Below, piece after piece: positions 2,883-42,455 of a DNA stretch of 64,000 bases; position 1 is the first letter of the stretch, and each line of letters opens with the position of its first letter. Origin of the DNA: an uncultured bacterium (lineage in GTDB: Bacteria; Patescibacteriota; Minisyncoccia; UBA6257; 2-01-FULL-56-20); the NCBI GenBank assembly GCA_963705915.1, contig OY970126.1, forward strand, positions 623,893 to 687,892, written 5' to 3'. Under the pieces are notes generated by a model. That model was not told where the DNA came from. It searched no databases and saw only the letters and a program-made list of their open reading frames with translations. Position numbers and translations under genes: made by a program.

Positions 2883-3539
2883 TCATTTTTTAATCTTTTT
2901 GGGTGCGCCAATCTTCTTGGGCGTGGTCTTGGGCGCTATCGGCTCGTTGCTAAGGCTCGCCCAGAGATACCGGCTCGCGAGACTACGATACGGCTTCCAC
3001 GCCTCTGCAATCTTCATCGCTTGCCGCTCCGTTGGATGACCCTTCAGTTTATAGAGCTTTTTGATGGCATTCCGCAAGCCCAAGTCGCCGTAGGAAAAAA
3101 CGTCTTCGCGCCCGAGCGAGAAAATGAGGAACATTTCCGCCGTCCACGGCCCAATCCCCTTCACGGCAACGAGATGGTCCATCACCTCCTGATCCGACCA
3201 TTGATCGATCTTCTTTAAGTCAACGGTCTTATCCAGAACCTTTTTTGCCAAATCTTTTACGAAACTCACTTTCATATTCGACAGTCCAACGGCGCGAATT
3301 TTGCGTGCAGGCATTTTCAGGATATCTTTCGGCGTCGGAAATTTTTTCCGAGGCACAAGCGACGAAAAGCGTTTGAAGATTGTGTCAGCGGCCTTCACGG
3401 AAAGCTGCTGACTCGTAATCGCTTCCACGAGCGCCTCAAAATGCTTTCCACGCAAAGAAAGTTCGCGAAGCTTAATCCCCTCGATGAGTGGCTTCAAGAC
3501 CGGGTCGTTCTTCTTGAGATGAGTGAGCTGTTTGTTCAT
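2883..3539 (-). CDS. HhH-GPD family DNA glycosylase (AlkA/3-methyladenine glycosylase II-like)
   Basis: HhH-GPD core ...VAVKGIGPWTAEMFLIFSLGREDVFSYGDLGLRNA...; start set at MNKQLTHL because the longer ORF overlaps glyA. Confidence 0.7.
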   Translation of the reverse strand: MNKQLTHLKKNDPVLKPLIEGIKLRELSLRGKHFEALVEAITSQQLSVKAADTIFKRFSSLVPRKKFPTPKDILKMPARKIRAVGLSNMKVSFVKDLAKKVLDKTVDLKKIDQWSDQEVMDHLVAVKGIGPWTAEMFLIFSLGREDVFSYGDLGLRNAIKKLYKLKGHPTERQAMKIAEAWKPYRSLASRYLWASLSNEPIAPKTTPKKIGAPKKIKK

Positions 3540-4786
3540 TCGATCCCTGGCACCGGAAATTGCAGCGAAAACTTTTTTACTTTTTCTTTCATCTTCCCCA
3601 GCACAGCCGCGTCTTCCCGATGCGCGAGCGTTTCGTCGATGAGATCCGCGACCGTCTGCATGTCGCTCTCTTTGCACCCACGCGTGGTGAGGGCGGGCGT
3701 ACCCAAGCGGATACCCGAAGGATCAAGCGGTTTTCGCGGGTCGAACGGTATCATGTTTTTATTGATCGAAATGCCAACATGCTCAAGCGCCTTTTCAGCT
3801 TCTTTACCGGTGATAGCCTTGCTGCCGAAGAGATCGACGAGCATGAGATGATTATCCGTGCCACCCGAAATAATGCGATACCCTTTTGATTGCAACGCAC
3901 CGGCAAGCGCGCGGGCATTTGTGATAACTTGCCTTGCATACTCCTCAAACTCCGGTTTCAACGCCTCGCCGTAGGCAATCGCTTTTGCGGCGTTGATGTG
4001 GTCATGCGGACCGCCTTGCACGCCGGGAAATACCGACTTATCAATCGCGGCGGCAAATTTTTCTTTGCACATGATCATCGCGCCGCGCGGGCCGCGCAGC
4101 GTCTTATGCGTTGTGGCGGAAACGACGTCGCAATAGGGCACCGGATTTTCCAACTGCTTGCCGGCGATGAGCCCGGCGATGTGCGCAACATCAGCGAACA
4201 AGAACGCGCCGGATTTATCGGCAATCGCACGGAAGCGCTCCCAATCAAGCGAACGCGAATATGCCGAGAACCCCGCAAGAATCATTTTCGGTTTCTCACG
4301 CATCGCAATTTCCTCTACTTCATCCATGTCGATGAGTTCAGTCTCGCGATTCACAAAGTACGGAATGATTTTATAAAGCTTGCCAGAAAAATTGAGCGGG
4401 TGGCCGTGCGAAAGATGGCCGCCCTGGTCAAGTGAAAATCCGAGCACGGCATCGCCAGGATTCAGAAGCGCCATATAGACCGCGAGATTTGCCGGCGATC
4501 CGGAGAGCGGCTGCACATTCACGTGTTCGGCGCCGAAAAGTTCCGTTGCGCGTTCGATGGCAAGCGTTTCCGCCTGGTCGATAATTTCGTTGCCGCCATA
4601 ATAACGTTTGTTCGGATAGCCTTCGCTGTATTTATTGGTAAGCACTGAACCCATTGCCTCAAGTACGGCGCGGGAAACATAGTTCTCACTCGCGATAAGT
4701 TCAATGCCTTCTTTTTGGCGCTGCTCTTCGCGTTTGATGATTTCGTAGACAGCCCTATCCTCTTTTTCGATCGTCGGGTATTTCAT
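3536..4786 (-). CDS. glyA: Serine hydroxymethyltransferase
   Basis: 416-aa product from MKYPTIEKEDRAVYEII... with PLP-lysine region ...SATTHKTLRGPRGAMI...; the track ORF 3536..5437 has a spurious upstream extension. Confidence 0.9.
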   Translation of the reverse strand: MKYPTIEKEDRAVYEIIKREEQRQKEGIELIASENYVSRAVLEAMGSVLTNKYSEGYPNKRYYGGNEIIDQAETLAIERATELFGAEHVNVQPLSGSPANLAVYMALLNPGDAVLGFSLDQGGHLSHGHPLNFSGKLYKIIPYFVNRETELIDMDEVEEIAMREKPKMILAGFSAYSRSLDWERFRAIADKSGAFLFADVAHIAGLIAGKQLENPVPYCDVVSATTHKTLRGPRGAMIMCKEKFAAAIDKSVFPGVQGGPHDHINAAKAIAYGEALKPEFEEYARQVITNARALAGALQSKGYRIISGGTDNHLMLVDLFGSKAITGKEAEKALEHVGISINKNMIPFDPRKPLDPSGIRLGTPALTTRGCKESDMQTVADLIDETLAHREDAAVLGKMKEKVKKFSLQFPVPGIE

Positions 4787-4849
4787 GGGATACGATAATA
4801 ATATAGAGTGCGAAATGATTGCACAACTACCCTCATGCGCTCTACAATA

Positions 4850-5995
4850 ATGGACGATACCGCCATGCATGACTCTGGGTCGAAAAAAGTCATTGCGGAC
4901 CTTCTTGCCGCCGCCGACATCACAATCAATGGCAGCCGGCCGTGGGATATTAAGGTCCTGAATGAAGATTTCTATGATCGCGTATTTCGCTACGGGACGC
5001 TTGGCGTTGGCGAAGCCTACATGGACGGCTGGTGGGAATGCGAAAAACCCGACGAATTCTTCTTCCGGGCCTTCCGGGGTTCGCTCGAAGAAAAAGTGAA
5101 AAACTGGCGGACCGCCATCCACGTCTTGAAAGCGACCGTTTTTAATTATCAGAAAAAATCTCGCGCGGCCGAAGTCGCCGAACGGCATTACAACCTGAGC
5201 AACGAGCTCTATGAATATATGCTCGGTAAAATGATGGCCTACACGTGCGCGTACTGGCCGCACGCAAAAAATCTCGACGAAGCACAAAACGCCAAGCTTG
5301 ACCTTATCTGTAAAAAAATCGGCCTCAAGCCGGGCATGAAAATCTTGGACCTCGGCTGCGGATTCGGAAGCTTTATGAAATTTGCGGTCGAGCACTACAA
5401 CGTGAGCGCCGTAGGCGTGAACCTCTCCAAAGAACAAGTACGGTTTGGTCGGGAATGGTGCAAGGGCTTACCGATTGAATTCCAACTCATCGATTATCGT
5501 GAAGCAAAGGGGATGTTCGACCGCGTGATCTCAATCGGACTCACTGAGCATGTCGGCTATAAAAATTATCGAAGTCTTTTCGAGGTTGCAAATCGAGCGC
5601 TCGTCGACGACGGGTTATTCTTGCTTCACACGATCGGTAGCAATGAATCGCACGCGGCAACCGACCCGTGGATTACAAAATATATCTTTCCGAACGGCAT
5701 GCTGCCTTCGATACAACAACTTTCAGGTGCCATGGAAAAATCTTTCATCATCGAAGACCTGCACAATTTTGGCGCCGACTATGATAAGACCCTCATGGCG
5801 TGGTTTGAGAACTTTAAAAAGCACTGGCCTGAACTGCAAAAAAACGATCCGACGAATTATGACGAGCGATTTTATCGAATGTGGACGTACTATCTCCTCG
5901 CCTGCGCCGGCATGTTCCGGGCCCGCCGCGGCCAGCTCTGGCAATTCGTCTTGTCGAAAAAAGGCGTGCTCGGCGGATATACGTCCGTCCGATAA
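4850..5995 (+). CDS. cfa: Cyclopropane-fatty-acyl-phospholipid synthase family SAM-dependent methyltransferase (Cfa/BfaB-like)
   Basis: Near-collinear with E. coli Cfa: YMDGWWEC, ILDLGCGFG SAM motif, HTIGS, KYIFPNG, FRMWTYYLLACAG. Confidence 0.85.
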   Translation: MDDTAMHDSGSKKVIADLLAAADITINGSRPWDIKVLNEDFYDRVFRYGTLGVGEAYMDGWWECEKPDEFFFRAFRGSLEEKVKNWRTAIHVLKATVFNYQKKSRAAEVAERHYNLSNELYEYMLGKMMAYTCAYWPHAKNLDEAQNAKLDLICKKIGLKPGMKILDLGCGFGSFMKFAVEHYNVSAVGVNLSKEQVRFGREWCKGLPIEFQLIDYREAKGMFDRVISIGLTEHVGYKNYRSLFEVANRALVDDGLFLLHTIGSNESHAATDPWITKYIFPNGMLPSIQQLSGAMEKSFIIEDLHNFGADYDKTLMAWFENFKKHWPELQKNDPTNYDERFYRMWTYYLLACAGMFRARRGQLWQFVLSKKGVLGGYTSVR

Positions 5996-6025
5996 ATGCG
6001 ATACCATTGCGACTGCGCATAACCT

Positions 6026-7384
6026 ATGCCAAACACTGACTACCCCGCCTACGAGGAACGCAAGGCCCGTCTGAGCGATCAGATGCAAAAGATCCAGCAT
6101 GTTCGTTTGGACAAAGCGACGTCAAATCTTTTTCGAAGTCGAGAAAGGATATCAGGTGCGAAAATAGCACAAAACAAACTAAGCGTTCGGGATTTTAACC
6201 ATGTGCTCTCTGTAAATATCGAAGAGCGCTGGGCCGACATTGAAGGTATGACGACGTATGAAGACTTCGTGGACGAGACGTTGAAACATGGCTTGATGCC
6301 TGCCGTTGTCCCGCAGCTCAAAACGATTACCATCGGTGGCGCGGTGAGCGGCGTGGGCATCGAATCGACATCATTCCGCTACGGGCTTGTCCATGAAACG
6401 GTGATCGAAATGGAAATATTGCTCGCGTCCGGAGAAATAATGTTGTGCAACAAAGATAAAAACGCGGATTTATTTTACGGATTTCCAAACTCCTATGGCA
6501 CGTTCGGCTATGTTCTCCGGCTCAGGGTAAAATTATTGCCCGTGCAACGGTTCGTCAAACTCGAACACAAAAAATTCACTGATCGAATTTTGTATCTCCA
6601 AGATCTTGAGCGCGCGTGCACTTCAAACGCTCCGCGCGTTGATTTTGTTGACGGCACGATCTTCGCCTCGGATGAAATGTACATCACAACGGGAACATTC
6701 ACAAACGATGCGCCCTACACAAGCGACTACACTTATATGAACGTGTATTACCAATCGATCCGCAAGAGAAACGAAGACTATCTCCCCGTCCGCGATTATC
6801 TCTGGCGCTGGGACACCGACTGGTTCTGGTGCTCAAAGGCTATCCACGCACAAAATCCGATCATCCGAAGACTCCTCGGCAAAAAGCGCCTCAACTCCAA
6901 TTTTTATACGAAGGCTATGCGCATGAATGACCGGCTTGGCATAACAACCAAGTTCTCGGCGCTTTTTGGAGGGCGACGCGAATGGATTATCCAAGACGTT
7001 GATATCCCCATCGAAAACGCACCGGCATTTGCCGAATTCTTTTTCCAGAACATCGGCATACGACCGATCTGGATCTGTCCGATCGGATCGTACGATAAAA
7101 CCATCAAATTTCCGCTCTATCCCCTTGACCCCAAAAAACTCTATGTGAATTTTGGCTTCTGGGATTCCGTCCTGACCGATAAAGAACCGGGTCATTACAA
7201 CCGCCTCGTCGAAGCGAAAGTTTCGGAGCTTCATGGCAGAAAAGGATTATATTCCGATTCATTCTATACACCCGAGGAATTCTGGCGTGTTTACGATAAG
7301 GCAGCCTACGACGTATTAAAAGAGCGGTATGACCCGGAACACAAACTAAAAAACCTCTTTGAAAAGAGCATCCAGAAAAAATAG
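6026..7384 (+). CDS. FAD-binding (PCMH-type) oxidoreductase, BfaA-like partner of the cfa-like methyltransferase
   Basis: FAD-binding region ...ITIGGAVSGVGIESTSFRYGLVHE... and its position immediately downstream of cfa on the same strand. Confidence 0.6.
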   Translation: MPNTDYPAYEERKARLSDQMQKIQHVRLDKATSNLFRSRERISGAKIAQNKLSVRDFNHVLSVNIEERWADIEGMTTYEDFVDETLKHGLMPAVVPQLKTITIGGAVSGVGIESTSFRYGLVHETVIEMEILLASGEIMLCNKDKNADLFYGFPNSYGTFGYVLRLRVKLLPVQRFVKLEHKKFTDRILYLQDLERACTSNAPRVDFVDGTIFASDEMYITTGTFTNDAPYTSDYTYMNVYYQSIRKRNEDYLPVRDYLWRWDTDWFWCSKAIHAQNPIIRRLLGKKRLNSNFYTKAMRMNDRLGITTKFSALFGGRREWIIQDVDIPIENAPAFAEFFFQNIGIRPIWICPIGSYDKTIKFPLYPLDPKKLYVNFGFWDSVLTDKEPGHYNRLVEAKVSELHGRKGLYSDSFYTPEEFWRVYDKAAYDVLKERYDPEHKLKNLFEKSIQKK

Positions 7385-7432: not shown

Positions 7433-8233
7433 TTACGATTCAGTGAGTTCAGTGTTATGATCGCTAGCGAATTGAGCAAAACGCAGAAGACGCGCAATAG
7501 CCTCATAAGCTTCAAACTCTGAGATTTCAGAAGCTGTTCCGTGTGAGGCATTATCGCGCCAATAGTTGAGCAGATCGGTTAAGTTTCGGAACGTAGCGGC
7601 AAGCGGACTTGTAATTCCTTGAACAATAGTATCTTCCGTACGGCGCCTGCCACTTGCAGAGCGATAGGTTCTCATAACCGCAGCTTCGTCTCCAGTTTTC
7701 TGAATAGCTAGATGTAGTAAAACTGATTCTGCTGCTGCTCCGCACATGACGCAACATGCAAGATAAGCTGTAGAAGAATAGCATTTCACAGCTTCTTGTG
7801 CCCTTTGAAAAAATCCCTCACCAAATCTCGCTCGAAAGCGCCCGAATAGCTCAGCAACACGAGCAGGTTCCACGGGTACGAATACGTTATGTTCCGTATC
7901 AGCTAACCAAGCACGTCCGATAGTGGTTATTGAGTAACCATCTCCACCAGAACCTCCATCTGTAATTTGCTCACCTTGCCGCCTGACACTAGGCCGAAGT
8001 ATCCCGCGCCTACAAAGTTCCCATGCGGCCTCATAAAATACTGACGAGAGGGGCGCAATCCTTACTTCAATATCGTGAGGGTTTTGGATCGGTACATTCT
8101 CCACCTCCTGCGCATAGGCACGACAAACTCTGGGAATATAGACATCGTAGCCATATTCAGCGGCAGCTTGTGGGGTTGCTGGGCGGCGAAGAAAGGAGAT
8201 TAGAAATTGGATAGCATCATCTACTCGTGGCAT
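7433..8233 (-). CDS. Hypothetical protein with a C-terminal R-x4-H motif (possible HEPN-like domain)
   Basis: 266-aa ORF with no recognisable family; contains NYWRDNASHG (R-x4-H). Confidence 0.4.
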   Translation of the reverse strand: MPRVDDAIQFLISFLRRPATPQAAAEYGYDVYIPRVCRAYAQEVENVPIQNPHDIEVRIAPLSSVFYEAAWELCRRGILRPSVRRQGEQITDGGSGGDGYSITTIGRAWLADTEHNVFVPVEPARVAELFGRFRARFGEGFFQRAQEAVKCYSSTAYLACCVMCGAAAESVLLHLAIQKTGDEAAVMRTYRSASGRRRTEDTIVQGITSPLAATFRNLTDLLNYWRDNASHGTASEISEFEAYEAIARLLRFAQFASDHNTELTES

Positions 8234-8314
8234 ATGCTCTGACTTTATCAGAATTTATAGCGAAAACCAATCTGGGTTCGTTAACGCATTAATGGTTGCT
8301 CGCTTAATTTCGTT

Positions 8315-9352
8315 CTATTGGTCGTTCCCGCTAGATGCTTTAGTGTTGAATATCGGAAAGTTTGCGTATGTGCTTATTTGTTGCGGTAGCTCCTTTGTAG
8401 CTGTTGCATAAATGCTCATCCCTTGAGCTTCGCTCCACGTATAAAATTTGTCTTGATCTATGAGAAAAATCGCTTGAGCATTGTATGCCCGTGAATCGTA
8501 AGAACGCTCATACGTTATATCAAAGACATCAAATGATATCCAACCATTACCCCTTGCGCTTGTATCAAATTGACCTTGAGCAATTTCTCCCTTTTCTAAC
8601 TTAGCTTGTGTTATCCAGTTAAGCCCAATGCCTTGGAAAGGCGACGTCTCCTGACCAGCGACTCCCATCCACTGATTTTGCTGTTTATCGTATATAAAAC
8701 TATCGTGAGCGACCGTAAGATTCTGAATTTCAATGTCGCCAAGATTTTCCACTGCGAAAGTGTATGAAGAGGAAGAATTTTGTCTTAGGAGATAAGTTAC
8801 ATTTGGCGCGATGGGGATATTATTCTCTATAAAACTTTCTATTGGCGGTACCGCTCCGGTAGCGACGTATCCACTAATGATAAAACATACTATGAAAAGA
8901 AAAGCCGCAAAAATATATCGTAACCAAACTTTTCCTCCTGGCTCCGCCTGAAACAAACGGTTGAATAAATTAGCTCGTTTTAATGCCCATGATATAAATG
9001 TGAGCAGTATGAGCGTACCTGTAAGTCCTAGTATGATCGTGAGTCCTTGTTCGCCAAAAATATCGTTGAATTCTAAAAGCCAATAGGCAATAAATCCAAG
9101 CCCGCCTAGGAAAATAACATTTTCGAAAAGTGTTAGCCGCATATCACCTCTCTTATTAGGGAAGGTTTCCCAGACTTCGAGCCACAAAATGCCCACCGCC
9201 GTCAGCGACAAAAAAGATAGGCCGACAGAAAATGGCCTTATATTTAAACTCTGAAAGAATATCGTAAGAGCAACAAAAATTGCTAGAACTTCAAGAAGGT
9301 CGTGATTTTTTTCTATATATGTCCTTATCGTTATCTTCGTCTCTTCGTTCAT
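8315..9352 (-). CDS. Hypothetical polytopic membrane protein with a C-terminal extracytoplasmic domain
   Basis: Multiple N-terminal hydrophobic helices; lower GC than the flanking core genes. Confidence 0.5.
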   Translation of the reverse strand: MNEETKITIRTYIEKNHDLLEVLAIFVALTIFFQSLNIRPFSVGLSFLSLTAVGILWLEVWETFPNKRGDMRLTLFENVIFLGGLGFIAYWLLEFNDIFGEQGLTIILGLTGTLILLTFISWALKRANLFNRLFQAEPGGKVWLRYIFAAFLFIVCFIISGYVATGAVPPIESFIENNIPIAPNVTYLLRQNSSSSYTFAVENLGDIEIQNLTVAHDSFIYDKQQNQWMGVAGQETSPFQGIGLNWITQAKLEKGEIAQGQFDTSARGNGWISFDVFDITYERSYDSRAYNAQAIFLIDQDKFYTWSEAQGMSIYATATKELPQQISTYANFPIFNTKASSGNDQ

Positions 9353-9513
9353 GCATTTAGAATATCAAGCATCGGACATAATTACTAACGTGGTTCTTTT
9401 GCTTAAAAACGCTGATTTGAACGCTGATCTCGGCGAAAATTAGCTTGAGTAGCGGACTGCAATTTAAAATGCAAGACACTGCGAACGTCTAAAAGAACCT
9501 TTCATTGAAGAGG

Positions 9514-10287
9514 TCAATGCTTAGAAGCAATTTTTTTAATACCTCTACACTTGGGATAATTCTCACAGCCGAGAAAGAGGCCATAGGGCCCCTTGCGAGG
9601 AAACATCCTGCCACCACATTTATCGCACATCTCTTTTTCGGAGTCGGGTTTTATGATACCAGCTTCAATAAGTGGTTTTTTTGAAAGATCATCGGCTGCT
9701 TGGTTTTGTTCCCGCGGAACCCATTCAATTTCAAATTCCCGCGATTCTAAAAGCTTTAATGCTCGTTCTAGTTGCGCCGCCAAGTGAGGTGCGTCTTTGT
9801 GCGGCATCCAGATCGTTTTCTTTTTATCTTTCCATCCCCATTCCTTGGAAATCATCCTACACACTAAATCACTATCTCCGTGAATCTTAATGCTACCTTC
9901 AAGTTTTAAATCCTTAACTTGCTCTAATGCCTTAATTAATCCAGTATACTCGGCAAAATTATTAGTCATGTATTCGCCCTTGCCAATAAGTTGTGCGTCT
10001 TGGGCGATAACCACCCCGTCTTTTTTAATCAGCCAACCATAACTTGCGGTGCCATTGTTATTGGGTTCACAAGCGCCATCAAAATTAATTTCAATTGCAA
10101 ATTCTTTATTCTCTCTCTTTAAAAATCCTTTAAGCCATTCCTCTGCTTCTTCCTTGGTTTTACAGGCCTTATATCGTGGCCTGCTTTGTCGCTGCACTTT
10201 TGCCTGGCATTCTTCCCAGCTCGTCACAATCCCTTGTTCGTTAGTAGCAGGTAAATAGTAGCCGTAGAATTTTTGCTTCTTTCCCAT
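9514..10287 (-). CDS. rnhA: Ribonuclease H (RNase HI family) with an N-terminal hybrid-binding (caulimovirus VI-like) domain and a C-terminal topoisomerase-type C4 zinc ribbon
   Basis: N-terminal KFYGYYLPATNEQGIVTSWEECQAKV...EEAEEWL; RNase H core EINFDGACEPNNNGTASYGW...FAEYTGLIKAL...IHGDSDLV; C-terminal CDKCGGRM...GCENYPKCRGI. Confidence 0.65.
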   Translation of the reverse strand: MGKKQKFYGYYLPATNEQGIVTSWEECQAKVQRQSRPRYKACKTKEEAEEWLKGFLKRENKEFAIEINFDGACEPNNNGTASYGWLIKKDGVVIAQDAQLIGKGEYMTNNFAEYTGLIKALEQVKDLKLEGSIKIHGDSDLVCRMISKEWGWKDKKKTIWMPHKDAPHLAAQLERALKLLESREFEIEWVPREQNQAADDLSKKPLIEAGIIKPDSEKEMCDKCGGRMFPRKGPYGLFLGCENYPKCRGIKKIASKH

Positions 10288-10387
10288 ATAGCGTTGATTT
10301 TACGCCTACTTAAAGCTAAACTGAAGCCATAATTTAATATAAGATTGTTGGCCTAAACCAAGCATTTGCTTGGCATGGCATTACCTA

Positions 10388-10439
10388 AGTCCCATCGCTG
10401 ATACCAAACGCCACGTTTGGCCTGCTCAGCGATGGGCCA
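10388..10439. repeat. Nested palindrome: 11-bp inverted repeat CCCATCGCTGA/TCAGCGATGGG enclosing an inner hairpin CCAAACG-CCA-CGTTTGG
   Basis: Read directly from the sequence, between divergent genes; the AACGCCACG motif recurs inverted at about 10463. Confidence 0.6.
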
Positions 10440-10532
10440 CACTCGAAAGGGTGCGTAAAGCCAGCGTGGCGTTTTGTGTTTTACAGAAACCCCACATTGG
10501 CCAATTAAAGGCCGATTTTTATTTCTATCAAA

Positions 10533-10976
10533 ATGAAAAAGCAGTCTTCGTTCGGAATTATCGTAACTATTCTCGTGTTCTTAGTAATCGGTGCATTTTG
10601 GTGGAGTATCGGACAAGTGAACCCAAACGTGCAAGCCAACAACACTGCCTCGACCCCAATCGTTGTGACTGCTGCAAAGATTGAAAGCGATTATACGAAC
10701 AACGAGATTTCTGCTGACGACCAGTATAAAGGCCAGTATATTCAGGTATCGGGTTTCCTTAGCTCAATCAGTAAAGGTATCACCGGAAGCCCATATATCG
10801 TGATTGGAACAAATTCACAGGACGTAGGAAGCATTGAATGTTCTTTTAGCGATAGCGATGATGCCGCACTTGCGACCCTTAGCGCAGGGAATCCCATTAC
10901 AGTAGAGGGCATTGGAAACGGATATGTGATGATAAATGATTGTTCTATTGTGTCTGGATCTACGACAATGCAATAG
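10533..10976 (+). CDS. Membrane-anchored protein with an OB-fold (tRNA_anti-like) extracytoplasmic domain
   Basis: N-terminal TM helix followed by a pattern resembling tRNA_anti-like OB-fold proteins (...YKGQYIQVSGFLSSISKG...IVIG...). Confidence 0.45.
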   Translation: MKKQSSFGIIVTILVFLVIGAFWWSIGQVNPNVQANNTASTPIVVTAAKIESDYTNNEISADDQYKGQYIQVSGFLSSISKGITGSPYIVIGTNSQDVGSIECSFSDSDDAALATLSAGNPITVEGIGNGYVMINDCSIVSGSTTMQ

Positions 10977-11675
10977 CTATTTGTTCCAGAAAGTTTCAGG
11001 GTGTATCGCTCGTTTTGAGCAACAATTAGCTCAATCCGTGACCCTGAATTTTTTGGGATTTTAGCTAGTGCTTCAGTTAGAAGATTTATAGGCACAATTA
11101 CTCTTTTTGAGCTGCATTTCCTCAATGAAACTTTTAGAACATTTAGGTCATTTGCAGCTATGTTGAAATTATGCTATAATCGAAGAACCATTAGATACTC
11201 CAGTTCGTCTTGTGTCGGTGGTTCTACAATTGAATAGGCTCCAGATTCTCTGCGGGTGCTCTGTCTTATAGTTTGACAACATCCACCGCATTAACGCGGC
11301 TCTATCGTTGATTTCGTGAAGCCAACCCTAAATTCCTTGGTGAAGTTTTGTCCAGGCATGTTGAACTAGCAGGGCAAGGTCTATAAATAGATAGGGGTTG
11401 GCCGCCGGTAAAAGAGGTTATTAAAATCCATTCGGCAACACAGTAAAAACCTGGTTCTGTCCTATTCATCCATAGCTTTTTTATAATTTCCGCTCGTCGG
11501 ATAGTAAAAACGTATGCCTAATAAAGTGAAAGTGTTTAATTAAGCTGCTATTAAACATAACTTGTTGGCTTTGTTACTAGCGTAGATATATATAAATCCC
11601 GCACGCGCATTTAAGCTTTTTGCAAAAAGTAATTTTTTTGAAAAAACTTTTCTGCGTTTTTTTCTATTCCCAAAA

Positions 11676-12371
11676 TTGCCCATTTTCTCTAGAATGGGTA
11701 TTATGGCTGGAAAAATATCACAGCATACCAGAGGTTTCTGGTTGAAGAAGTTTAAAGAACAAACTGACGAACTAAAGACAAAACTTAAGGCAGACCCTTT
11801 TGAAAGGGCACACTGCCAAGAGATGGCTCTGGCATTTATGTTCCTCTACTTGTTTGTAGAGGCCAGTGTAGATGAGCTGGTCTGGAGAATTTTGCCTCAG
11901 GCGACAATTATTCAATCTGGGGGAACCACACTTACCGAATATGGAAAGTACAAAGAAAAAAAGCTTTCACTAAAAGGTAAACTCGAATTCTTCTTTTCAT
12001 TATTTCCCAAAACAGTTACGTTTAAGGAATTTTTTGACCTAAAGCAAAAATTGGATTCGCTAGTAAAGATTCGTAATAAAGGCTTTCACTTGGAAGAAAT
12101 GTCTTGGAAGACACCGGACGACTTAGAGCATTACGATTCAAAGAAGGAGATTCCGATCAAGTTTGCCAAGGATCTTACAGTTAAGAATTTAAAAGCGCAG
12201 GTTGATGTGACGAGAGAATTTATTGACGAGCTAAAAGAACTTACAAATAAAGGCTTTGATAATTTAGAAATAGATGTTTTGTTTGATGGTGTGAATAAAA
12301 AAATGAAGTTTGCAGATTGGCATTTCGAACAGTTCGAAAAGAACTGGGCTGAATTTATACCAGAACCTTAG
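11676..12371 (+). CDS. Hypothetical protein (island cargo)
   Basis: 231-aa ORF in an AT-rich region; no recognisable motif. Confidence 0.45.
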   Translation: MPIFSRMGIMAGKISQHTRGFWLKKFKEQTDELKTKLKADPFERAHCQEMALAFMFLYLFVEASVDELVWRILPQATIIQSGGTTLTEYGKYKEKKLSLKGKLEFFFSLFPKTVTFKEFFDLKQKLDSLVKIRNKGFHLEEMSWKTPDDLEHYDSKKEIPIKFAKDLTVKNLKAQVDVTREFIDELKELTNKGFDNLEIDVLFDGVNKKMKFADWHFEQFEKNWAEFIPEP

Positions 12372-12495
12372 ACTCATAGTTCCGTTGGTGTTCTATTTAG
12401 GATGAGGTGATAATATAGGGGTACTAATATAAAAGGGCGACGGTTTTAATCAATCTTATGTTTACCGATAACACAATCAATCTTATGGATACCCG

Positions 12496-12657
12496 ATGCT
12501 TTCGGAGCAGGCCTTACAGCGTTTTAAAGAACTCTATCGCAGGCGATTCAATGTGGAACTTAGCGACCAGCAAGTAGCAGAGATAGCCACAAATTTTCTA
12601 GCACTTTTTCAGTTAGTTTATAAAGCGAAAAGTGCGGTTGCTAAAAACGATTCTTAA
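12496..12657 (+). CDS. Small helical protein (53 aa) immediately upstream of the serine recombinase; candidate excision/directionality factor or regulator
   Basis: Hand-translated ORF MLSEQALQRFKELYRRRFNVELSDQQVAEIATNFLALFQLVYKAKSAVAKNDS; absent from the track because it is under 60 aa. Confidence 0.3.
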   Translation: MLSEQALQRFKELYRRRFNVELSDQQVAEIATNFLALFQLVYKAKSAVAKNDS

Positions 12658-12706
12658 CGAACCGGGACTTTTTTATAGGACGGTGTGATAGTAAAACTTA
12701 TTAGCT

Positions 12707-14335
12707 ATGTCAGATATTCCGAAAATAAAGTATTTTCTCTATGCTCGTAAATCTAGCGAGGACGATAGACAGCTCCTATCTATTCCCGCACAAATAGATG
12801 AGCTCAAAGTTCTTGCTGCTCGCGAAGAACTTGAAATTATAGAGATTATTCAAGAGGAGAAATCAGCAAAGGCCCCCGGGCGAGAGCACTTCAACAACAT
12901 GCTTGCGCGAATTCACGCAGGCGAAGCGCAAGGTATCATCGTTTGGAAATTAGACCGTTTAGCCCGTAATCCGATAGATGGCGGCAATATCATGTGGATG
13001 ATGCAAAATAGCGTTATCAAGCACATACGCACATTTGATCGTAGCTGTCTGCCTACGGACAATGTGCTAATGATGGCTTTTGAGTTTGGTATGGCCAATC
13101 AATTCATTAAGGAGTTAAGCGCAGGCACAAGGCGCGGCATGGATAAAAAAGCGCGAATGGGTTGGCTGCCTGGGTTAGTAACGCTTGGCTATTACAACAA
13201 TAAGTACGCAGATAAAGGAGCCAAGGATATTCGCCCCGACCCGGAACAGTTTCCAATTGTTCGTAAGTTATGGGATATGCTCATCTATGAACGCTTTTCA
13301 GTTCAAAGGATATACGAGATTGCTGTAGATGAATTGGGTTTGCGAAAACGCAATGGGCGCAAGCCAAGTAGAAGCAAAATTTATGAGATATTTAAAAACC
13401 CGTTCTATTATGGATATTTCCTTTACAAAGGAGAGCTATATAAGGGCAGTCATGAGCCAATGATAACGAAAGAAGAATTTGATACGGCGCAGGCAATAAT
13501 TGAAGGCAGGAGTGTCCCCAAGCCTCGCATTCATAGTTTTTTCTTTACAGGAACAACGCGATGCGGCGAATGTGGTTCAGCTATTGTTTCAGACCCTAAG
13601 ATCAAACGCCAAAAGAACGGAAACGTTCACGAATATATCTATGCTCGCTGCACCAAGCGCAACAATCCACAATGTAGTCAACGACATACTGCTCAAAAGA
13701 TATTTGAAGAACAAGCAATAGAAATACTTAGTAGCATAGAGATACCGGAGGAATTTCATAACTGGGCTGTAAGCGTATTACGTGAATCAACAGCGGATGA
13801 AGCGGCCAGCAGAGATGCTATCCTTTCGGCGCATCGTAAAAACTATGATGCGTGCGCGCGAAAATTAGATACGTTGATTGATATGCGAGCAAGCAACGAA
13901 ATTAACGAAGATGAGTTTGCAACAAAGAAGGTCGAAGTTACTGCAGAAAAAGATAGAGCAATGGAACTTATGAATGAAGCAGATAATCGCGTGGAGCACT
14001 GGCTAGAATATGCAGAACAGGCACTCACATTCGCGCAAACAGCAAAAGACCGCTTCGAGAATGGCAATAATGATGTACGGCGGGCGATACTCCTTACGCT
14101 TGGTGCGAACCTCACACTAAAAGACAACAAACTAAGTATTTCTTTAGCAAAACCCCTTGTCGTACTTCAAAACGCTGCAAAAGCAATAAGAGAAATACAC
14201 GATGCGTGCGAACCTCAAAAAGCCCAATTAAAAGCTAGTGAGATTGCAAAAGTCTATTCAGAAAATCCCGTATTGGGTGCCTCACGGGAATCGGACCCGT
14301 ATTGCCGCTGCCACAGAGCGGAGCTTTACCATTAA
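12707..14335 (+). CDS. Large serine recombinase (resolvase/invertase N-domain, recombinase domain, zinc ribbon); site-specific integrase
   Basis: N-terminal YARKSSEDDRQLLSIPAQ catalytic region, long recombinase domain and cysteine cluster CGECGS...C..C. Confidence 0.85.
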   Translation: MSDIPKIKYFLYARKSSEDDRQLLSIPAQIDELKVLAAREELEIIEIIQEEKSAKAPGREHFNNMLARIHAGEAQGIIVWKLDRLARNPIDGGNIMWMMQNSVIKHIRTFDRSCLPTDNVLMMAFEFGMANQFIKELSAGTRRGMDKKARMGWLPGLVTLGYYNNKYADKGAKDIRPDPEQFPIVRKLWDMLIYERFSVQRIYEIAVDELGLRKRNGRKPSRSKIYEIFKNPFYYGYFLYKGELYKGSHEPMITKEEFDTAQAIIEGRSVPKPRIHSFFFTGTTRCGECGSAIVSDPKIKRQKNGNVHEYIYARCTKRNNPQCSQRHTAQKIFEEQAIEILSSIEIPEEFHNWAVSVLRESTADEAASRDAILSAHRKNYDACARKLDTLIDMRASNEINEDEFATKKVEVTAEKDRAMELMNEADNRVEHWLEYAEQALTFAQTAKDRFENGNNDVRRAILLTLGANLTLKDNKLSISLAKPLVVLQNAAKAIREIHDACEPQKAQLKASEIAKVYSENPVLGASRESDPYCRCHRAELYH

Positions 14336-14471
14336 GCTAGAGGCACCATATCTCGCAGCTGCGAATCGTCTTTAATCTATACTCATTTGAATATTTTTTC
14401 AACCGCAGCGCATAATCTCGAGCGCAACACCATTTGACCATCCTTCGTATTCTTTATAAAATAATTAAACT

Positions 14472-16690: not shown

Positions 16691-16703
16691 GTATGACATC
16701 CTG

Positions 16704-16775
16704 TGGGCGCGGTAGGATTCGAACCTACAACCGATCGTGTATAAGACGATTGCTCTGCCGTTGAGCTACGCGCCC
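16704..16775 (-). tRNA. tRNA, anticodon UAU by inspection (tRNA-Ile2-like)
   Basis: Reverse complement folds as acceptor GGGCGCG/CGCGCCC, D-arm GCTC-AACGGCA-GAGC, anticodon stem ATCGT/ACGAT with loop CTTATAC, T-arm GTAGG-TTCGAAT-CCTAC, discriminator A. Confidence 0.75.
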
Positions 16776-33838: not shown

Positions 33839-36202
33839 ATGAAATGGCTATCGCCTAAAAAAATTTTGGGTTTTGCCCTCGCTGGGATGTTCCTTACGGT
33901 GCTTGGATTTACGTTGAGTACTGGCGTTGCACATGCGGCAGGTGGATCGATACCAGACCTTCTGAGTTGCGGCGCAAATGCTTTCACTTGTGCCGTCTAC
34001 GGAATCAGCTTTGTCGTCAATGCTATCCTAGGACTTTTCATCAGCCTTGGAGCTTACATCATCACCTTCGCGCTGAATCTCGATGGCAATGTGTTCAATT
34101 CTCCCACCGTACAAACTGGATTCTCAATCGCGCTTTCGGTAGCAAATCTTGGATTTGTGCTCGGCATAATTGTTATCGCTATCGCAACAATCCTTCGAAG
34201 CGAAGCCTATGGCGTCAAACAAATGCTTTGGAAGCTAGTTGTGATGGCCATCCTTGTGAACTTTGGGCTTGTGATTACAGCTCCCATTGTTGGGTTTGCC
34301 GACAACTTGAGCAACTACTTTGTTAACGCCGAAGGCGGCACAATAAGTTTCGCCACAAATCTCACAAACGCTTTTGCGCCGCAAAATCTTATGCAACCGC
34401 CTCCTGCAGCGACAGGAGGCCAAACGGCTTGCAACGTTGCCGGCGGACTCCTTGGCGGACCTGTCGGAGCTGCCCTCTGCAATACCGCTCGCCAATATTT
34501 AAATGGCGACACCTCTGGCGCAAGCGCGTTTATGGTCCAGGTGCTTTCGCTCATTTTCTCGGCGGTATTTTCGTTTATAGTCATGATCACATTTTTCGCA
34601 ATCGGAATTATGCTTTTTATTAGATACATTTATCTAGCCCTCCTTTTAGTCCTTCTGCCACTCGCATGGCTCACCTGGGTTCTACCTAAACTCAGCCATC
34701 ATTTTGAACGATGGCTGAGCGAGTTTTTCAAATGGACGTTCTTTCCTGTTATTTCGCTGTTCTTCATTTATATTGCCTTCCAGTCGGTGACCAACATAAA
34801 CGGGGCGGTCGGTTTGCAAGCGGCATCAATCGCATCGAGCAACCCAAACGGTCCGCTCGCAAGCATGGCAACACAGACCGGCGGTAACGTGAACCTCATC
34901 CAAACTGCTCTCGATGAATTGCTCATGGCGGGTCTTTGCCTCGGCGGACTCTTTGCAGCAAATGCAATGTCTATTAAAGGAGCGGATACGGCGATGAGTA
35001 TCGTGAAGGGTGCTGGGAAAGGTGTGAAGAATTGGACAACGAGACAGACTAAGAAAGCTGGGCGGGCTACGTATCAAAGATTAGGAGGCAATACGTTGAA
35101 CAAAAAGATGCAGGCTGCCAGAGTGCCTATCATACCAACAATCGGCAGGCAGTTTGCAAGCTGGACCGAGGCTGGAGGAAAAGATCTCGTAGGCAAGCGA
35201 GCAGCCGATCTGAAATTGAGCGGCATGAGCGACGAACGTCTTGTTGAAGTTACGAAGGGCCTCCGAGAGAAGCCTGATCAATTTGCAGCTCTGGCTGAAT
35301 GGCAGAAGCGCAACAAACTTTACAAAGTTGAGCAAATCGGCGGCACTGATCTTAATACATTCCTCGATAAAAACGAGTCATTGGCAAAGAGCGGCTACGA
35401 CCAAGGCAAGCTTATGAGTGATATTAATAAAAACTTTGGCAACGACGCCGACGGAAGAAGGATCAGCAGGGCACGTGCGGCTGAGATGGAAAAAGTTGAC
35501 GTCGTTGATTCACGGGGAATCGTTGCCGCTCCGGGAACAAAAGTTAGCGCCGCCGATCTTGCTGGTGGCGCAAAGGTTGTAATAGAAAATGCAAAAGAGG
35601 CCATAAAAGAATTTGGCCTCGACACCACGGTCAATCATAACGGTAGGATTGTTCGCGCAGACACGCTGATCGAAGACGCGCATAAATCTATCGCCGACGC
35701 TGACGACGCCGCCGACAAGGTTGAAGTGAAAGACGAAAAGGGACTGCTTGGTCCCGCTGGGAAAATGCAAAGAGCCGGAGAGCTGCTTCAGGCCGCATCA
35801 GATAAATTTGTTAAAGGATTGGATAAGGGAGATTTTGCAAAAACTCACCCAGACTATCTTTTTGAAGGAGAAGGAAAATTCGGTTTGGATGAAAATACTG
35901 TACGCGGCTTGGGACGAGCATTCGCTCAATCCATCGTTTCAACCAATCCTTTGCTTATCAGCTCGGCCGTTGGAAAGCTTGACAAAGAGGATGAAATAAA
36001 ATCATTTATGCGTGAGATTACAAAGGCCATCGATAATGCTGTAGCTACCAATCACTTAACTAAGAAGGATGCCAATAGACTACAAAACCAATATCTTGGT
36101 AGAAGTATCGAGAAGAGGATTTCCAATATCGCAACCGGCGGAGGTGGAGGTGGCGCAGCTCCCGCAGCTCCATCCGGTGGCGGAGGTGGTGGTGGACATT
36201 AA
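33839..36202 (+). CDS. Polytopic inner-membrane protein, VirB6/TrbL-like T4SS channel-component candidate, with a long cytoplasmic tail
   Basis: Signal sequence, at least six TM helices in the first 330 aa, then a charged domain ending in Gly runs; operon context with PrgI and VirB4. Confidence 0.5.
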   Translation: MKWLSPKKILGFALAGMFLTVLGFTLSTGVAHAAGGSIPDLLSCGANAFTCAVYGISFVVNAILGLFISLGAYIITFALNLDGNVFNSPTVQTGFSIALSVANLGFVLGIIVIAIATILRSEAYGVKQMLWKLVVMAILVNFGLVITAPIVGFADNLSNYFVNAEGGTISFATNLTNAFAPQNLMQPPPAATGGQTACNVAGGLLGGPVGAALCNTARQYLNGDTSGASAFMVQVLSLIFSAVFSFIVMITFFAIGIMLFIRYIYLALLLVLLPLAWLTWVLPKLSHHFERWLSEFFKWTFFPVISLFFIYIAFQSVTNINGAVGLQAASIASSNPNGPLASMATQTGGNVNLIQTALDELLMAGLCLGGLFAANAMSIKGADTAMSIVKGAGKGVKNWTTRQTKKAGRATYQRLGGNTLNKKMQAARVPIIPTIGRQFASWTEAGGKDLVGKRAADLKLSGMSDERLVEVTKGLREKPDQFAALAEWQKRNKLYKVEQIGGTDLNTFLDKNESLAKSGYDQGKLMSDINKNFGNDADGRRISRARAAEMEKVDVVDSRGIVAAPGTKVSAADLAGGAKVVIENAKEAIKEFGLDTTVNHNGRIVRADTLIEDAHKSIADADDAADKVEVKDEKGLLGPAGKMQRAGELLQAASDKFVKGLDKGDFAKTHPDYLFEGEGKFGLDENTVRGLGRAFAQSIVSTNPLLISSAVGKLDKEDEIKSFMREITKAIDNAVATNHLTKKDANRLQNQYLGRSIEKRISNIATGGGGGGAAPAAPSGGGGGGGH

Positions 36203-36211
36203 TAAATATAC

Positions 36212-37279
36212 ATGCTCACTCTTTCAGATCAACAAGTTTTCAGTCGTTGGCCTTCCTTAAGCCCGGCACTTCGAGAAGCGCTCTTTTCGCAACCGAACGC
36301 TGATTTCGTTTGGAATTTATGCACCGACGAACACCTACCCGAAGAAAAACGATATGACGTGGCAGAAATTTCCGGATATGTGCTTATGGGCTTTCTCCAC
36401 CCAGAAGATCTGGCGGGGGAACTGGCTGCAACACTTGCTCTTGATCCAAAAATAACAAAAACTATCGCCGACGAAATCAACAAAAGAATTTTTGTCCCGC
36501 TCCGAGCCGATATCGATAAGGTTTACGAACCCGTGAGCAAACTCGCGCCATCCCCGATGCCGATCCGGGACATTAGCTCCGGCCAGGCACAAGCTATGAC
36601 ACCCAAACCTGTCCCGCTCTCGCCTGCGCCCTCAGCGCCGTCTTCCTTCACGAAAATTCCGCCGGCTTCCGAAGGAAAATTCGCGCCGATGAGCGGCGCG
36701 CCGTGGCCCACAAAGCCTGCGCCTGAACCATCAAAGATTGCACCCGGGAACTGGACCACGCAAAAGTCCGCGGTTGTAACACCTGCTGCATCATCATCGG
36801 ATCCGGCCCCGATCATGCTTCATGAAGATGCTAAATTTTCTGCAAGCGATAAAAATACCGACTTCCATCTTTCGCGGCCGGGAGGAGGCGCAGAAGTTTC
36901 GCTTGAAGGCGTGAAGCCAGAAAAAGCAGTGAAACCTGCGGTGCTCGAGCTCGGGACGCTCACAAACACTCCTGCCGCACAAAATGTAGGACCGAAGTTC
37001 ACACACTACACACAGTTCTCGTCGTCTCCCACGCCGAACTCGGAAGCGTCAGCGGTGTCGGCAAACACAGCCCCGAGAAACGTCACGGAGGTTACGGGCG
37101 CGCCGAATGTTACAGCGGCCCCCGTCGTGAGACCGGAGTCGACGCCGATCAAACCGATGTCGTCATCGAAACCGCCCGTCGCTCAAACGCCAATCCCGCA
37201 ACCGCCAAAACCGCCAGCACCAAAGCCAGTCCAAGCGCCACGGCCCGGGCAACCGCCGATTCAGAAAAATTATCCATAA
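36212..37279 (+). CDS. Proline-rich hypothetical protein of the T4SS-like operon
   Basis: The C-terminal half is a P/A/S/T-rich linker; no TM segment. Confidence 0.45.
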   Translation: MLTLSDQQVFSRWPSLSPALREALFSQPNADFVWNLCTDEHLPEEKRYDVAEISGYVLMGFLHPEDLAGELAATLALDPKITKTIADEINKRIFVPLRADIDKVYEPVSKLAPSPMPIRDISSGQAQAMTPKPVPLSPAPSAPSSFTKIPPASEGKFAPMSGAPWPTKPAPEPSKIAPGNWTTQKSAVVTPAASSSDPAPIMLHEDAKFSASDKNTDFHLSRPGGGAEVSLEGVKPEKAVKPAVLELGTLTNTPAAQNVGPKFTHYTQFSSSPTPNSEASAVSANTAPRNVTEVTGAPNVTAAPVVRPESTPIKPMSSSKPPVAQTPIPQPPKPPAPKPVQAPRPGQPPIQKNYP

Positions 37280-37296
37280 TATAATAGAGCAAACCA

Positions 37297-37854
37297 ATGC
37301 AGTTCCAAGTTCCACAATTTATCGAGACTGAAGACAAAGTGGTGGGCCCGTTCTCGATCCGCCAGTTTGCCTATGTTGGCATTGCCTGCTTCATAAGTGC
37401 CATCGCATATTTTATGCTTGCGACATGGCTATTCTTTCTTGTCGCAATCATTTTTATCGGCGGTGCGCTCGCCATATCGTTTGTAAAGGTTGAGGGCCGC
37501 CCCCTCATTAATATTCTTATTTCCGCAGCCAATTTTTATTGGAAACCGCAAACCTACGTCTGGCAACCGGAGCAGACAGCAATTGCCGCGCCCGGCAAGA
37601 TCAAAAGTGAAGCAAAATCGGGCGGTTTTTCGCTTGAAGATATCCTCGCAAACGCTCTCCGGAAAAAATCGGTTGATACGGCAAAAGTTGCCGATGGCAA
37701 CGCTCTCCATAAAAGCTGGCAAAATGTGCAAACGGGGGAGACCCAAAAAACCTCTGACCGGCAATTCATCGAACGCAAGATGAATGAGCGCTATCAGATT
37801 TTCCAGAAGCTTGCGGGCGACCGGGACGCTGCGCGGCGGGTGGACTATCGATAG
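37297..37854 (+). CDS. PrgI-family protein (VirB3-like component of Gram-positive-type T4SS)
   Basis: MQFQVPQFIETEDKVVGPFSIRQFAYVGIACFISAIAYFML... matches the PrgI N-terminal pattern with two TM helices. Confidence 0.6.
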   Translation: MQFQVPQFIETEDKVVGPFSIRQFAYVGIACFISAIAYFMLATWLFFLVAIIFIGGALAISFVKVEGRPLINILISAANFYWKPQTYVWQPEQTAIAAPGKIKSEAKSGGFSLEDILANALRKKSVDTAKVADGNALHKSWQNVQTGETQKTSDRQFIERKMNERYQIFQKLAGDRDAARRVDYR

Positions 37855-37872
37855 TTGGATTATCGATACTAA

Positions 37873-38592: not shown

Positions 38593-38616
38593 TTTCATTA
38601 ACCTTTCATTAAAACG

Positions 38617-40353: not shown

Positions 40354-40362
40354 CGCACTACG

Positions 40363-41235: not shown

Positions 41236-41268
41236 CGTCGTTCCGTTTGCTACAATAATAAAGAGTAT

Positions 41269-41958: not shown

Positions 41959-41974
41959 CTATGTTCCATTTCTC

Positions 41975-42451: not shown

Positions 42452-42455
42452 ATCT

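Follow-up and report, generated by a model that had tools for sequence, protein, structure and literature searches.

In the actinomycetes M. chlorophenolicum, T. curvata, M. smegmatis (MSMEG_6283/6284), and M. tuberculosis (Rv3719/Rv3720), a methyltransferase of the CMAS family, BfaB, is encoded adjacent to a flavoprotein of the PF01565 family, BfaA (PMC5660069, PMC7791843). Co-expression of both proteins in E. coli converts oleate to 10-methylene stearate and further to 10-methylstearate (PMC5660069, PMC7791843). The actinomycete gene order is bfaA followed by bfaB, with an overlap of 4 bp (PMC5660069). In the tmpBA pair of Desulfobacter and Desulfobacula, the methyltransferase gene comes first and the reductase gene second, and TmpA is a geranylgeranyl-reductase-like flavoprotein that is not homologous to BfaA (PMC7791843). 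TmpB of the Desulfobacter type makes 10-methylene palmitate in E. coli, where the tested enzyme was that of D. postgatei, and TmpB-type enzymes take C14-C20 chains with delta-9, -10, or -11 bonds (PMC7791843). We analyzed a 64-kb stretch of DNA (the window), which carries a CMAS methyltransferase gene next to a gene for a PF01565 flavoprotein. This pair is likely to be a two-step module that would convert the double bonds of phospholipid acyl chains to saturated mid-chain methyl branches, by which the cell would retune acquired lipids. The pathway itself is already known, but the methyltransferase partner differs and the kind of organism is unexpected. As judged by homology, the combination of a TmpB-type methyltransferase with a BfaA-type reductase merges elements of two published pathways, bfa and tmp.

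Both genes are intact and located on the + strand (open reading frame coordinates as in the earlier note). The first gene, at positions 4850-5995, encodes a CMAS-family SAM-dependent acyl-chain methyltransferase of 381 aa (Pfam, NCBIfam, alignment to E. coli Cfa) of the Cfa/TmpB clade. The second gene, at 6026-7384, encodes a BfaA-type FAD-binding oxidoreductase of the PCMH/VAO fold (452 aa; Pfam, BfaA identity, AF2 model), which is a predicted exocyclic-methylene reductase. The methyltransferase open reading frame runs from a GTG at 4808 to position 5995, with an ATG at 4850. Translation could alternatively start at the ATG at 4865, because an identical public protein, P0121, comprises only 376 aa. 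The two genes are separated by 30 nt (5996-6025, + strand), and a terminator scan detected no terminator-like site in this spacer, which is consistent with the presumed co-transcription of both genes. The intergenic region between the methyltransferase gene and the divergent glyA gene (3536-4786, - strand) comprises 63 nt (4787-4849), with a single promoter-like site on the + strand (TGCACA-17-TACAAT, 4820-4848). This site is a candidate promoter only, because neither the promoter scan nor the terminator scan gave more sites than expected from shuffled sequence. On the other side of the pair, an open reading frame at 7433-8233 (- strand) is convergent. With glyA divergent on one side and this open reading frame convergent on the other, the pair is therefore a self-contained two-gene unit. 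The one-carbon genes glyA and folD adjoin the pair, which is suggestive, but a functional link was set aside, since this linkage is not kept in relatives. Also next to the pair is a low-GC island that encodes a large serine recombinase; it is not flanked by att-like direct repeats of ≥15 nt.

The order of the two genes corresponds to tmpBA and is the reverse of bfaAB, with a short spacer in place of the overlap. In contrast, the flavoprotein is of the BfaA type and not of the TmpA type. No TmpA homolog was found in the 64-kb window by tblastn with two TmpA queries (E ≤ 0.01), nor does the window encode a second CMAS or BfaA paralog. The flavoprotein matched Pfam FAD_binding_4 (PF01565) with 49.7 bits (cutoff 26.4; 4e-13). 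Its AlphaFold (AF2) model (pLDDT 82.5) matched VAO/PCMH-fold enzymes, namely cytokinin dehydrogenases and DprE1, in a Foldseek search (TM 0.55-0.64, probability 1.00). Together with the short spacer, these matches bear out the earlier description of a co-directional, downstream PCMH-type FAD oxidoreductase. Over its full length, the protein is 43-50% identical to six published BfaA proteins (reference sequences from PMC7791843). The identity was 49.5% over 434 columns for T. curvata BfaA (E = 2e-151), 46% for M. smegmatis BfaA, and 43% for Rv3719; the mycobacterial, Rhodococcus, and Corynebacterium proteins range from 43 to 46%. The earlier note had named UfaA1 and Rv0449c for comparison, but the relevant M. 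tuberculosis proteins are Rv3720/Rv3719 (PMC7791843). The motifs TSNLFR, PNSYGT(L/F)GY, and WRWDTDWFWCS are invariant in the family alignment (A1) and also present in the published BfaA sequences. A place among the D-lactate/glycolate-type oxidases (the earlier note had named D-lactate dehydrogenases) was rejected, since the GlcD-type models TIGR00387 and PRK11230 scored only 27.1 and 17.6 bits (cutoffs 567.9 and 897). The flavoprotein is a full-length homolog of the experimentally validated BfaA methylene reductases, and its reductase activity is predicted on this basis.

The methyltransferase matched Pfam CMAS (PF02353) with 276.6 bits (cutoff 27; 2.6e-82). As the earlier note had stated, it is near-collinear with E. 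coli Cfa: its residues 4-376 align to residues 10-378 of this enzyme (PDB 6bqc) with 49% identity (E = 1.7e-127), and the N-terminal lipid-binding domains are likewise collinear. The Pfam, E. coli Cfa, and VAO-fold matches of both proteins are far above chance. The glycine-rich SAM-binding motif ILDLGCGFG is present, and the bicarbonate ligands, which are C139, E239, H266, I268, and Y317 in E. coli Cfa (PMC11387697, PMC7791843), are kept as C133, E233, H260, I262, and Y311. The identity to the collinear Desulfobacter TmpB proteins is 53-55%, compared to 34-35% for BfaB. A crude NJ tree (no bootstrap) places the methyltransferase in a clade with E. coli Cfa and TmpB, apart from the BfaB clade. 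Based on these comparisons, it is not a BfaB ortholog and is assigned to the Cfa/TmpB clade. The BfaB/BfaA-like module proposed by the earlier note therefore holds for the flavoprotein, but not for the methyltransferase, which lies outside the BfaB clade, nor for the gene order.

The same data bear on the public annotation, which makes the methyltransferase an ordinary synthase of cyclopropane fatty-acyl phospholipids; the flavoprotein would then have an unrelated or unknown redox role. In agreement with this annotation, the protein scores 579.5 bits (cutoff 400) against the NCBIfam equivalog NF008686 ("cyclopropane fatty acyl phospholipid synthase"), is collinear with E. coli Cfa, and has all bicarbonate ligands. 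Moreover, the true cyclopropane synthase Cfa of E. coli is nested within its clade in the crude NJ tree without bootstrap, and a solo Cfa homolog (P0207) with a Ser before the ligand Cys occurs in another member of the Paceibacterota. However, D. curvatus TmpB, which is 90% identical to D. postgatei TmpB, reaches 596.5 bits against NF008686 and is thus also above the cutoff. Because this score is higher than that of the window methyltransferase, NF008686 cannot tell the products apart, and annotation by this model names such methyltransferases cyclopropane synthases regardless of product. The adjacent gene for a clear BfaA homolog also argues against an ordinary Cfa. No BfaA gene is known next to cfa in E. 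coli. The likely substrate is shared by both enzymes, namely unsaturated acyl chains of intact phospholipids, but E. coli Cfa forms a cyclopropane, whereas a methylene or methyl branch is the predicted product in the window.

The two enzymes also differ in the residue directly before the ligand Cys: E. coli Cfa has Ser138, the window methyltransferase Thr132. A Ser at this position is found in 6/6 structurally characterized cyclopropane synthases (those of E. coli and A. aeolicus, L. acidophilus CFAS, CmaA1, PcaA, and MmaA2), which speaks against an ordinary Cfa in the window. All published BfaB and TmpB proteins have a Thr, as do the reductase-linked methyltransferases of three clades (20/20, 15/15, and 34/35, respectively). 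A BfaA neighbor was absent beside all three close Ser-type homologs that we looked up. The relation between this signature and the product type is a correlation only: a Ser also occurs in MmaA4, although this enzyme is no cyclopropane synthase. Nor does the Thr type always have a reductase next door, since P0201, P0216, and P0186 are Thr-type proteins without BfaA or TmpA within 4 kb. F127Y and F347W (E. coli numbering) were rejected as markers of reductase-linked enzymes, because Y and W stand at these positions in the cyclopropane synthases of A. aeolicus and L. acidophilus as well. The Ser/Thr position is a cheap candidate marker of the CMAS product type.

We subsequently consider the genomic context of BfaA homologs in other genomes. 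Of the BfaA homologs at 80 species-representative loci, 67 have a CMAS methyltransferase next to them, and 64 of these pairs are co-directional. The partner methyltransferases fall in three different CMAS clades, and the NJ trees of methyltransferase and flavoprotein have the same major clades. Therefore, functional coupling is favored over chance adjacency. Close homologs of both window proteins occur together on at least 24 contigs, and the pair is also adjacent in three other Paceibacterota contigs (L082, L084, and L091), of which L084 has syntenic flanks as well (FtsH, TyrRS, ClpP, PPase). The co-conservation on which the earlier note had made its proposal depend was thus observed. Such pairs occur in Nitrospira, Acidobacteria, Beta- and Gammaproteobacteria, Verrucomicrobia, and CPR. 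In actinomycete loci (L012, L033, L043, L063, and others), the FAD gene precedes the methyltransferase gene. No methyltransferase gene was found near seven gammaproteobacterial BfaA homologs, and these loci have no common partner either (gamma-glutamyltranspeptidase, ammonium transporter, FMN reductase, ABC ATPase). The search for a third conserved gene, comparable to bfaC, gave none, since the neighbors differ among the window, L082, and L084. The adjacency of BfaA and CMAS genes across phyla and three methyltransferase clades is hardly expected of an ordinary Cfa next to an unrelated redox enzyme, and we consider this explanation unlikely.

Some features of the locus could point to a remnant of horizontal acquisition, decaying or not expressed and without a role in its host, namely the recombinase-bearing island next door and the orientation of the pair, which is inverted relative to the syntenic L084. 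But both open reading frames are intact and of full length with their invariant residues kept, the GC content of the pair (~0.48-0.51) is like that of the rest of the window and not like that of the island (0.41), and related Paceibacterota retain the pair. A remnant is therefore highly improbable.

Taken together, these data support the methyl-branching interpretation of the pair, with the products of both enzymes predicted from homology. In the proposed first step, the methyltransferase would bind the membrane via its lipid-binding domain at the N terminus and methylate, with SAM as the donor, a cis double bond (delta-9 to delta-11) in an acyl chain bound to a phospholipid. By homology, the resulting carbocation would lose a proton and leave an exocyclic methylene instead of closing to a cyclopropane. 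In the second step, the FAD-binding PCMH-fold reductase would turn the methylene into a methyl group, as expected for a BfaA homolog, with NAD(P)H as the probable reductant. The product would be an acyl chain that is saturated and carries a mid-chain methyl branch (10- or 11-methyl). This predicted chemistry, from olefin via exocyclic methylene to methyl branch, is that of actinomycete bfaAB. A similar logic is known from the plant sterol side chain, where the methyltransferase SMT is followed by the FAD_binding_4 enzyme DWF1/DHCR24. There, too, SAM methylation of an olefin gives an exocyclic methylene, and a PCMH-type flavoenzyme then removes the double bond; the substrates are sterols instead of acyl chains, and the likeness is offered as an analogy.

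The two proteins could also act as methyltransferase and reductase on another substrate, or with another end point, than 10-methyl acyl chains of phospholipids. Examples are free or lysolipid acyl chains, glycolipids, other double-bond positions, or a halt at the methylene due to a weak reductase, as for TmpA. The range of chain lengths and bond positions of TmpB-type enzymes (PMC7791843) and the reported enrichment of lysolipids in CPR (PMC7242380) would fit such a deviation, as would the Nitrospira isomer, which is 11-methyl and not 10-methyl, and the CPR relative L091, in which the FAD gene is shortened to 309 aa. The window reductase, however, is of full length and has all family-invariant motifs. 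Overall, we assign a low probability to this explanation and retain saturated mid-chain methyl-branched phospholipid acyl chains as the probable product.

Judging from DnaA homologs, the organism belongs to Candidatus Paceibacterota (CPR). In contrast to the bfaAB hosts, which are fatty-acid-synthesizing actinomycetes, it is a tiny, reduced-genome bacterium that probably depends on a host. No fatty-acid synthesis genes were found in the 64-kb window (64 of ~827 kb), lipid synthesis is reported to be missing from CPR (PMC7242380, PMC12455944), and the source and composition of their membrane lipids are an open question (PMC7242380). Because the host is a member of the Paceibacterota and CPR are reported without lipid synthesis, tailoring of acquired lipids by the pair is plausible. 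Cfa, BfaB, and TmpB act on lipid-borne acyl chains, and the pair would therefore be a rare means for such a cell to tune its membrane. Since both steps would take place on pre-assembled lipids, the module would let a CPR cell, in which fatty-acid synthesis is probably missing, adjust how fluid and how resistant to oxidation lipids of foreign origin are. More tentatively, and with less than even confidence, we suggest that a fatty-acid-auxotrophic CPR cell converts acquired unsaturated phospholipids to saturated mid-chain methyl-branched ones by a TmpB/BfaA hybrid, that these would chemically mark the membrane autonomy of CPR, and that the Ser-to-Thr exchange marks, and perhaps helps to cause, the switch from cyclopropane to methylene across bacteria. 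If the module works as proposed, 10/11-methyl-branched acyl chains are predicted in CPR-enriched cell fractions. An incomplete literature search found no paper that connects CPR with BfaA or with 10-methyl fatty acids.

BfaA-type reductases thus extend beyond actinomycetes and are paired with three CMAS clades. The same type of pair is present in the Nitrospira loci L030, L064, and L070, and Nitrospira is known for 11-methyl-hexadecanoic acid (PMC5516240), which favors the methyl-branching reading of the pair. BfaA-CMAS pairs are therefore a possible genetic basis of biomarkers with mid-chain methyl branches, among them 11-methyl-C16:0 in Nitrospira.

The two co-directional ORFs that the earlier note had placed at 4850-7384 were found at exactly these positions. 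The methyltransferase gene (4850-5995, + strand) encodes 381 amino acids from an ATG at 4850, in an ORF that opens with a GTG at 4808; an identical public protein (P0121) of 376 amino acids implies a start at the ATG at 4865. After a spacer of 30 nt, in which a terminator scan detected no terminator-like site, it is followed by the flavoprotein gene (6026-7384, + strand, 452 amino acids). Since the pair is flanked by the divergent glyA gene, encoding serine hydroxymethyltransferase (3536-4786, - strand; 63 nt upstream), and by a convergent downstream ORF without family matches (7433-8233, - strand), it represents a self-contained unit. The expected PCMH-type FAD-binding oxidoreductase was recovered as well: FAD_binding_4 is the sole Pfam match of the flavoprotein, and its AlphaFold model (pLDDT 82.5) shows a VAO/PCMH fold. 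Among PDB sequences, the flavoprotein matched cytokinin dehydrogenases and DprE1, and these in their FAD domain only. A search of NCBIfam, in which no model for BfaA exists, gave nothing near any cutoff.

Both proteins were compared by BLASTP to experimentally studied BfaA, BfaB, TmpA, and TmpB proteins (supplementary file 3 of PMC7791843). With BfaA of T. curvata, the flavoprotein has 49.5% of residues in common (434 columns, 2e-151), and with BfaA of M. smegmatis, M. phlei, R. opacus, M. tuberculosis (Rv3719), and C. glyciniphilum 43-46%. It also shares the motifs TSNLFR, PNSYGTxGY, and WRWDTDWFWCS with the published BfaA proteins. The methyltransferase matches Pfam CMAS (2.6e-82) and retains the SAM motif; all five residues of the bicarbonate site (C133, E233, H260, I262, and Y311) are conserved as well. 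It is only 34-35% identical to BfaB, but 53-55% to TmpB of Desulfobacter/Desulfobacula and 49% to E. coli Cfa, which falls inside its clade in a crude neighbor-joining (NJ) tree without bootstrap. Thus, the proposal of a BfaB/BfaA-like module holds for the reductase (43-49.5% identity), whereas the methyltransferase is closer to TmpB/Cfa, and the gene order is reversed relative to bfaA-bfaB of actinomycetes (PMC5660069; surveyed actinomycete loci). The tmp pathway in turn has the same type of methyltransferase, but no homolog of its TmpA partner is encoded in the 64-kb window. Based on these identities and the lack of TmpA in the window, the module therefore combines a tmp-type methyltransferase with a bfa-type reductase.

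An alignment of flavoprotein family members was used to search GTDB genomes, one for each species; this gave at least 600 matches, from which we retained 80 loci. The pair is co-conserved across genomes: a CMAS methyltransferase adjoins the BfaA homolog in 67 of the 80 loci (co-directionally in 64 of these), and direct inspection confirmed adjacency in L082/L083, L084/L085, and L091, loci on related Paceibacterota contigs. Close homologs of both proteins, assigned to the same contig by its length, occur together on at least 24 contigs. Three types of pairing were observed: BfaA followed by a BfaB-type methyltransferase in actinomycetes, a separate methyltransferase clade followed by BfaA in Beta- and Gammaproteobacteria, and a Cfa/TmpB-type methyltransferase followed by BfaA in Acidobacteria, Nitrospira, Verrucomicrobia, and CPR (Patescibacteria), including the window. 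The same major groups appear in NJ trees of both proteins (crude, no bootstrap). The 13 loci without an adjacent methyltransferase comprise six contigs that end close to the gene and seven gammaproteobacterial homologs (L005, L006, L008, L010, L026, L035, and L044, from Acidiferrobacteraceae, Ectothiorhodospiraceae, Thiotrichales, and others), which have neither a CMAS methyltransferase within 3.9-6 kb nor a common neighbor. Their partner may be encoded elsewhere, or they may act on a different substrate. The presence of the third pair type in Nitrospira is consistent with 11-methyl-C16:0 known from this genus (PMC5516240).

Individual CPR loci deviate from these arrangements. L013 (Saccharibacteria) has a methyltransferase on either side of the flavoprotein gene; L023 (Patescibacteria) shows the actinomycete-like order with a 4-nt overlap and a Cfa-type methyltransferase; in L091 a shortened FAD gene (309 amino acids) follows the methyltransferase. 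L084 also shares FtsH, TyrRS, ClpP, and pyrophosphatase with the window; its pair is inverted relative to FtsH, and in the window an island of low GC lies between the pair and FtsH. L011, a contig of 1.86 kb from a bin labelled 'Nanoarchaeota archaeon', encodes at 393-1721 a BfaA homolog (51% identity) that clusters with a sequence from Saccharibacteria in the NJ tree; the contig probably belongs to CPR and was mis-binned.

Overall similarity cannot decide between a cyclopropane and a methylene product, because E. coli Cfa lies in the same clade and the NF008686 model ('cyclopropane fatty acyl phospholipid synthase' equivalog, cutoff 400) scores TmpB of D. curvatus (596.5 bits) above the window protein (579.5 bits). 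The former is 90% identical to TmpB of D. postgatei, which produces 10-methylene palmitate in E. coli (PMC7791843). Annotation with this model thus systematically labels methyltransferases that form methylene products as Cfa. In a column comparison, the groups could be told apart at one position, which directly precedes the bicarbonate-ligand Cys (S138 in E. coli). Thr is found there in 20 of 20, 15 of 15, and 34 of 35 reductase-linked methyltransferases of the three clades, in all published BfaB and TmpB proteins, in the window protein (T132), and in MmaA1 and UmaA. Ser is found in CFAS of E. coli, A. aeolicus, and L. acidophilus and in CmaA1, PcaA, and MmaA2, all cyclopropane-forming according to the mycolic-acid literature; the hydroxymycolate synthase MmaA4 carries Ser too. 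Among the best 120 homologs of the methyltransferase, ∼82 are Thr-type and 38 Ser-type, and it is Thr-type on all 24 contigs carrying both proteins. Three inspected Ser-type homologs (one from another Paceibacterota, flanked by MsrA/MsrB) have no BfaA neighbor, but three inspected Thr-type homologs have no nearby reductase either. Pairing thus seems to require Thr, although Thr by itself is not enough. It may serve as supporting evidence and a hypothesis for the product type, but not as proof. In L088, the Ser-type Cfa homolog P0239 is followed by a DUF1295/steroid-reductase/ERG4-like membrane protein of 215 amino acids (6224-6871), so CMAS methyltransferases may have reductase partners of yet a third kind, unrelated to the other two.

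Enzymes of the CFAS type associate peripherally with membranes and act on unsaturated acyl chains of phospholipid bilayers; the reaction passes through a carbocation, and the bicarbonate site is where this loses its proton (PMC11387697). In the bfa/tmp pathways, this chemistry yields a 10-methylene chain as its end product, and BfaA reduces that chain (PMC5660069, PMC7791843). Homology, intact catalytic residues, adjacency, and co-conservation are observed features of our pair. By analogy, the methyltransferase would form a methylene product on an acyl chain, which the flavoprotein would then reduce, with a presumed electron donor and branch position. The substrate would be scavenged lipids. 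No genes for fatty-acid or phospholipid synthesis were found among the ∼59 ORFs scanned in the window. Since the window is only 8% of the genome, a lack of fatty-acid synthesis in the organism is presumed from reports on CPR (PMC7242380, PMC12455944). DnaA (45707-47056) matches three proteins named Candidatus Paceibacterota, at identities of 92%, 87%, and 78%; further hits carry the names Pacebacteria, Liptonbacteria, and Patescibacteria. Proteins identical to the pair are encoded on an 827,485-bp contig. The chemistry and the two protein families are established, and the predicted function of the pair holds no mechanistic surprise. In the searchable literature, the hybrid combination of a BfaA reductase with a methyltransferase of the Cfa/TmpB clade, its breadth outside actinomycetes, and its presence in CPR appear undescribed. 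The pair opens the membrane lipids of CPR, and the prediction of products within the CMAS family, to testing.

Besides housekeeping genes (FtsH, TyrRS, ClpP, NusA, DnaA, DnaN, YidC, PBP1, RuvABC, CTP synthase), the window encodes a type IV pilus ATPase and a conjugation-like type IV secretion cluster (33839-43784, + strand) with a PrgI-family protein, a VirB4/TraG P-loop ATPase, and a T4SS pilin, along with several large ORFs that match no family; it resembles the Patescibacteria T4SS reportedly discussed in a bioRxiv preprint (10.1101/2025.01.22.634366). Between the lipid pair and FtsH, the stretch 8000-14350 has a GC content of 0.41 compared to ∼0.50 elsewhere and has a large serine recombinase at its end (12707-14335; Resolvase, Recombinase, Zn_ribbon_recom); the recombinase gene overlaps with tRNA-His (14275-14346, - strand) at its 3' end. 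This stretch probably represents an integrated element; a search for direct repeats of 15 nt or more on its flanks gave none. It contains an RNase H1-type protein fused to a topoisomerase-type C4 zinc ribbon (9514-10287, - strand; Cauli_VI, RNase_H, Zn_ribbon_Top1) and a match to the Rfam LOOT RNA just above the gathering score (10350-10473, + strand; 49.8 versus 46.4 bits), directly followed by a tRNA_anti-like OB-fold ORF (10533-10976). A tRNA-Ile with the anticodon UAU is located at 16703-16775 (- strand); in most bacteria, AUA is read by a tRNA with a CAU anticodon carrying lysidine rather than by UAU. Finally, overlapping HTH_3 (XRE; 960-1421, - strand) and Gp49/HigB-like (1390-1839, - strand) ORFs probably constitute a toxin-antitoxin module beside tRNA-Val.
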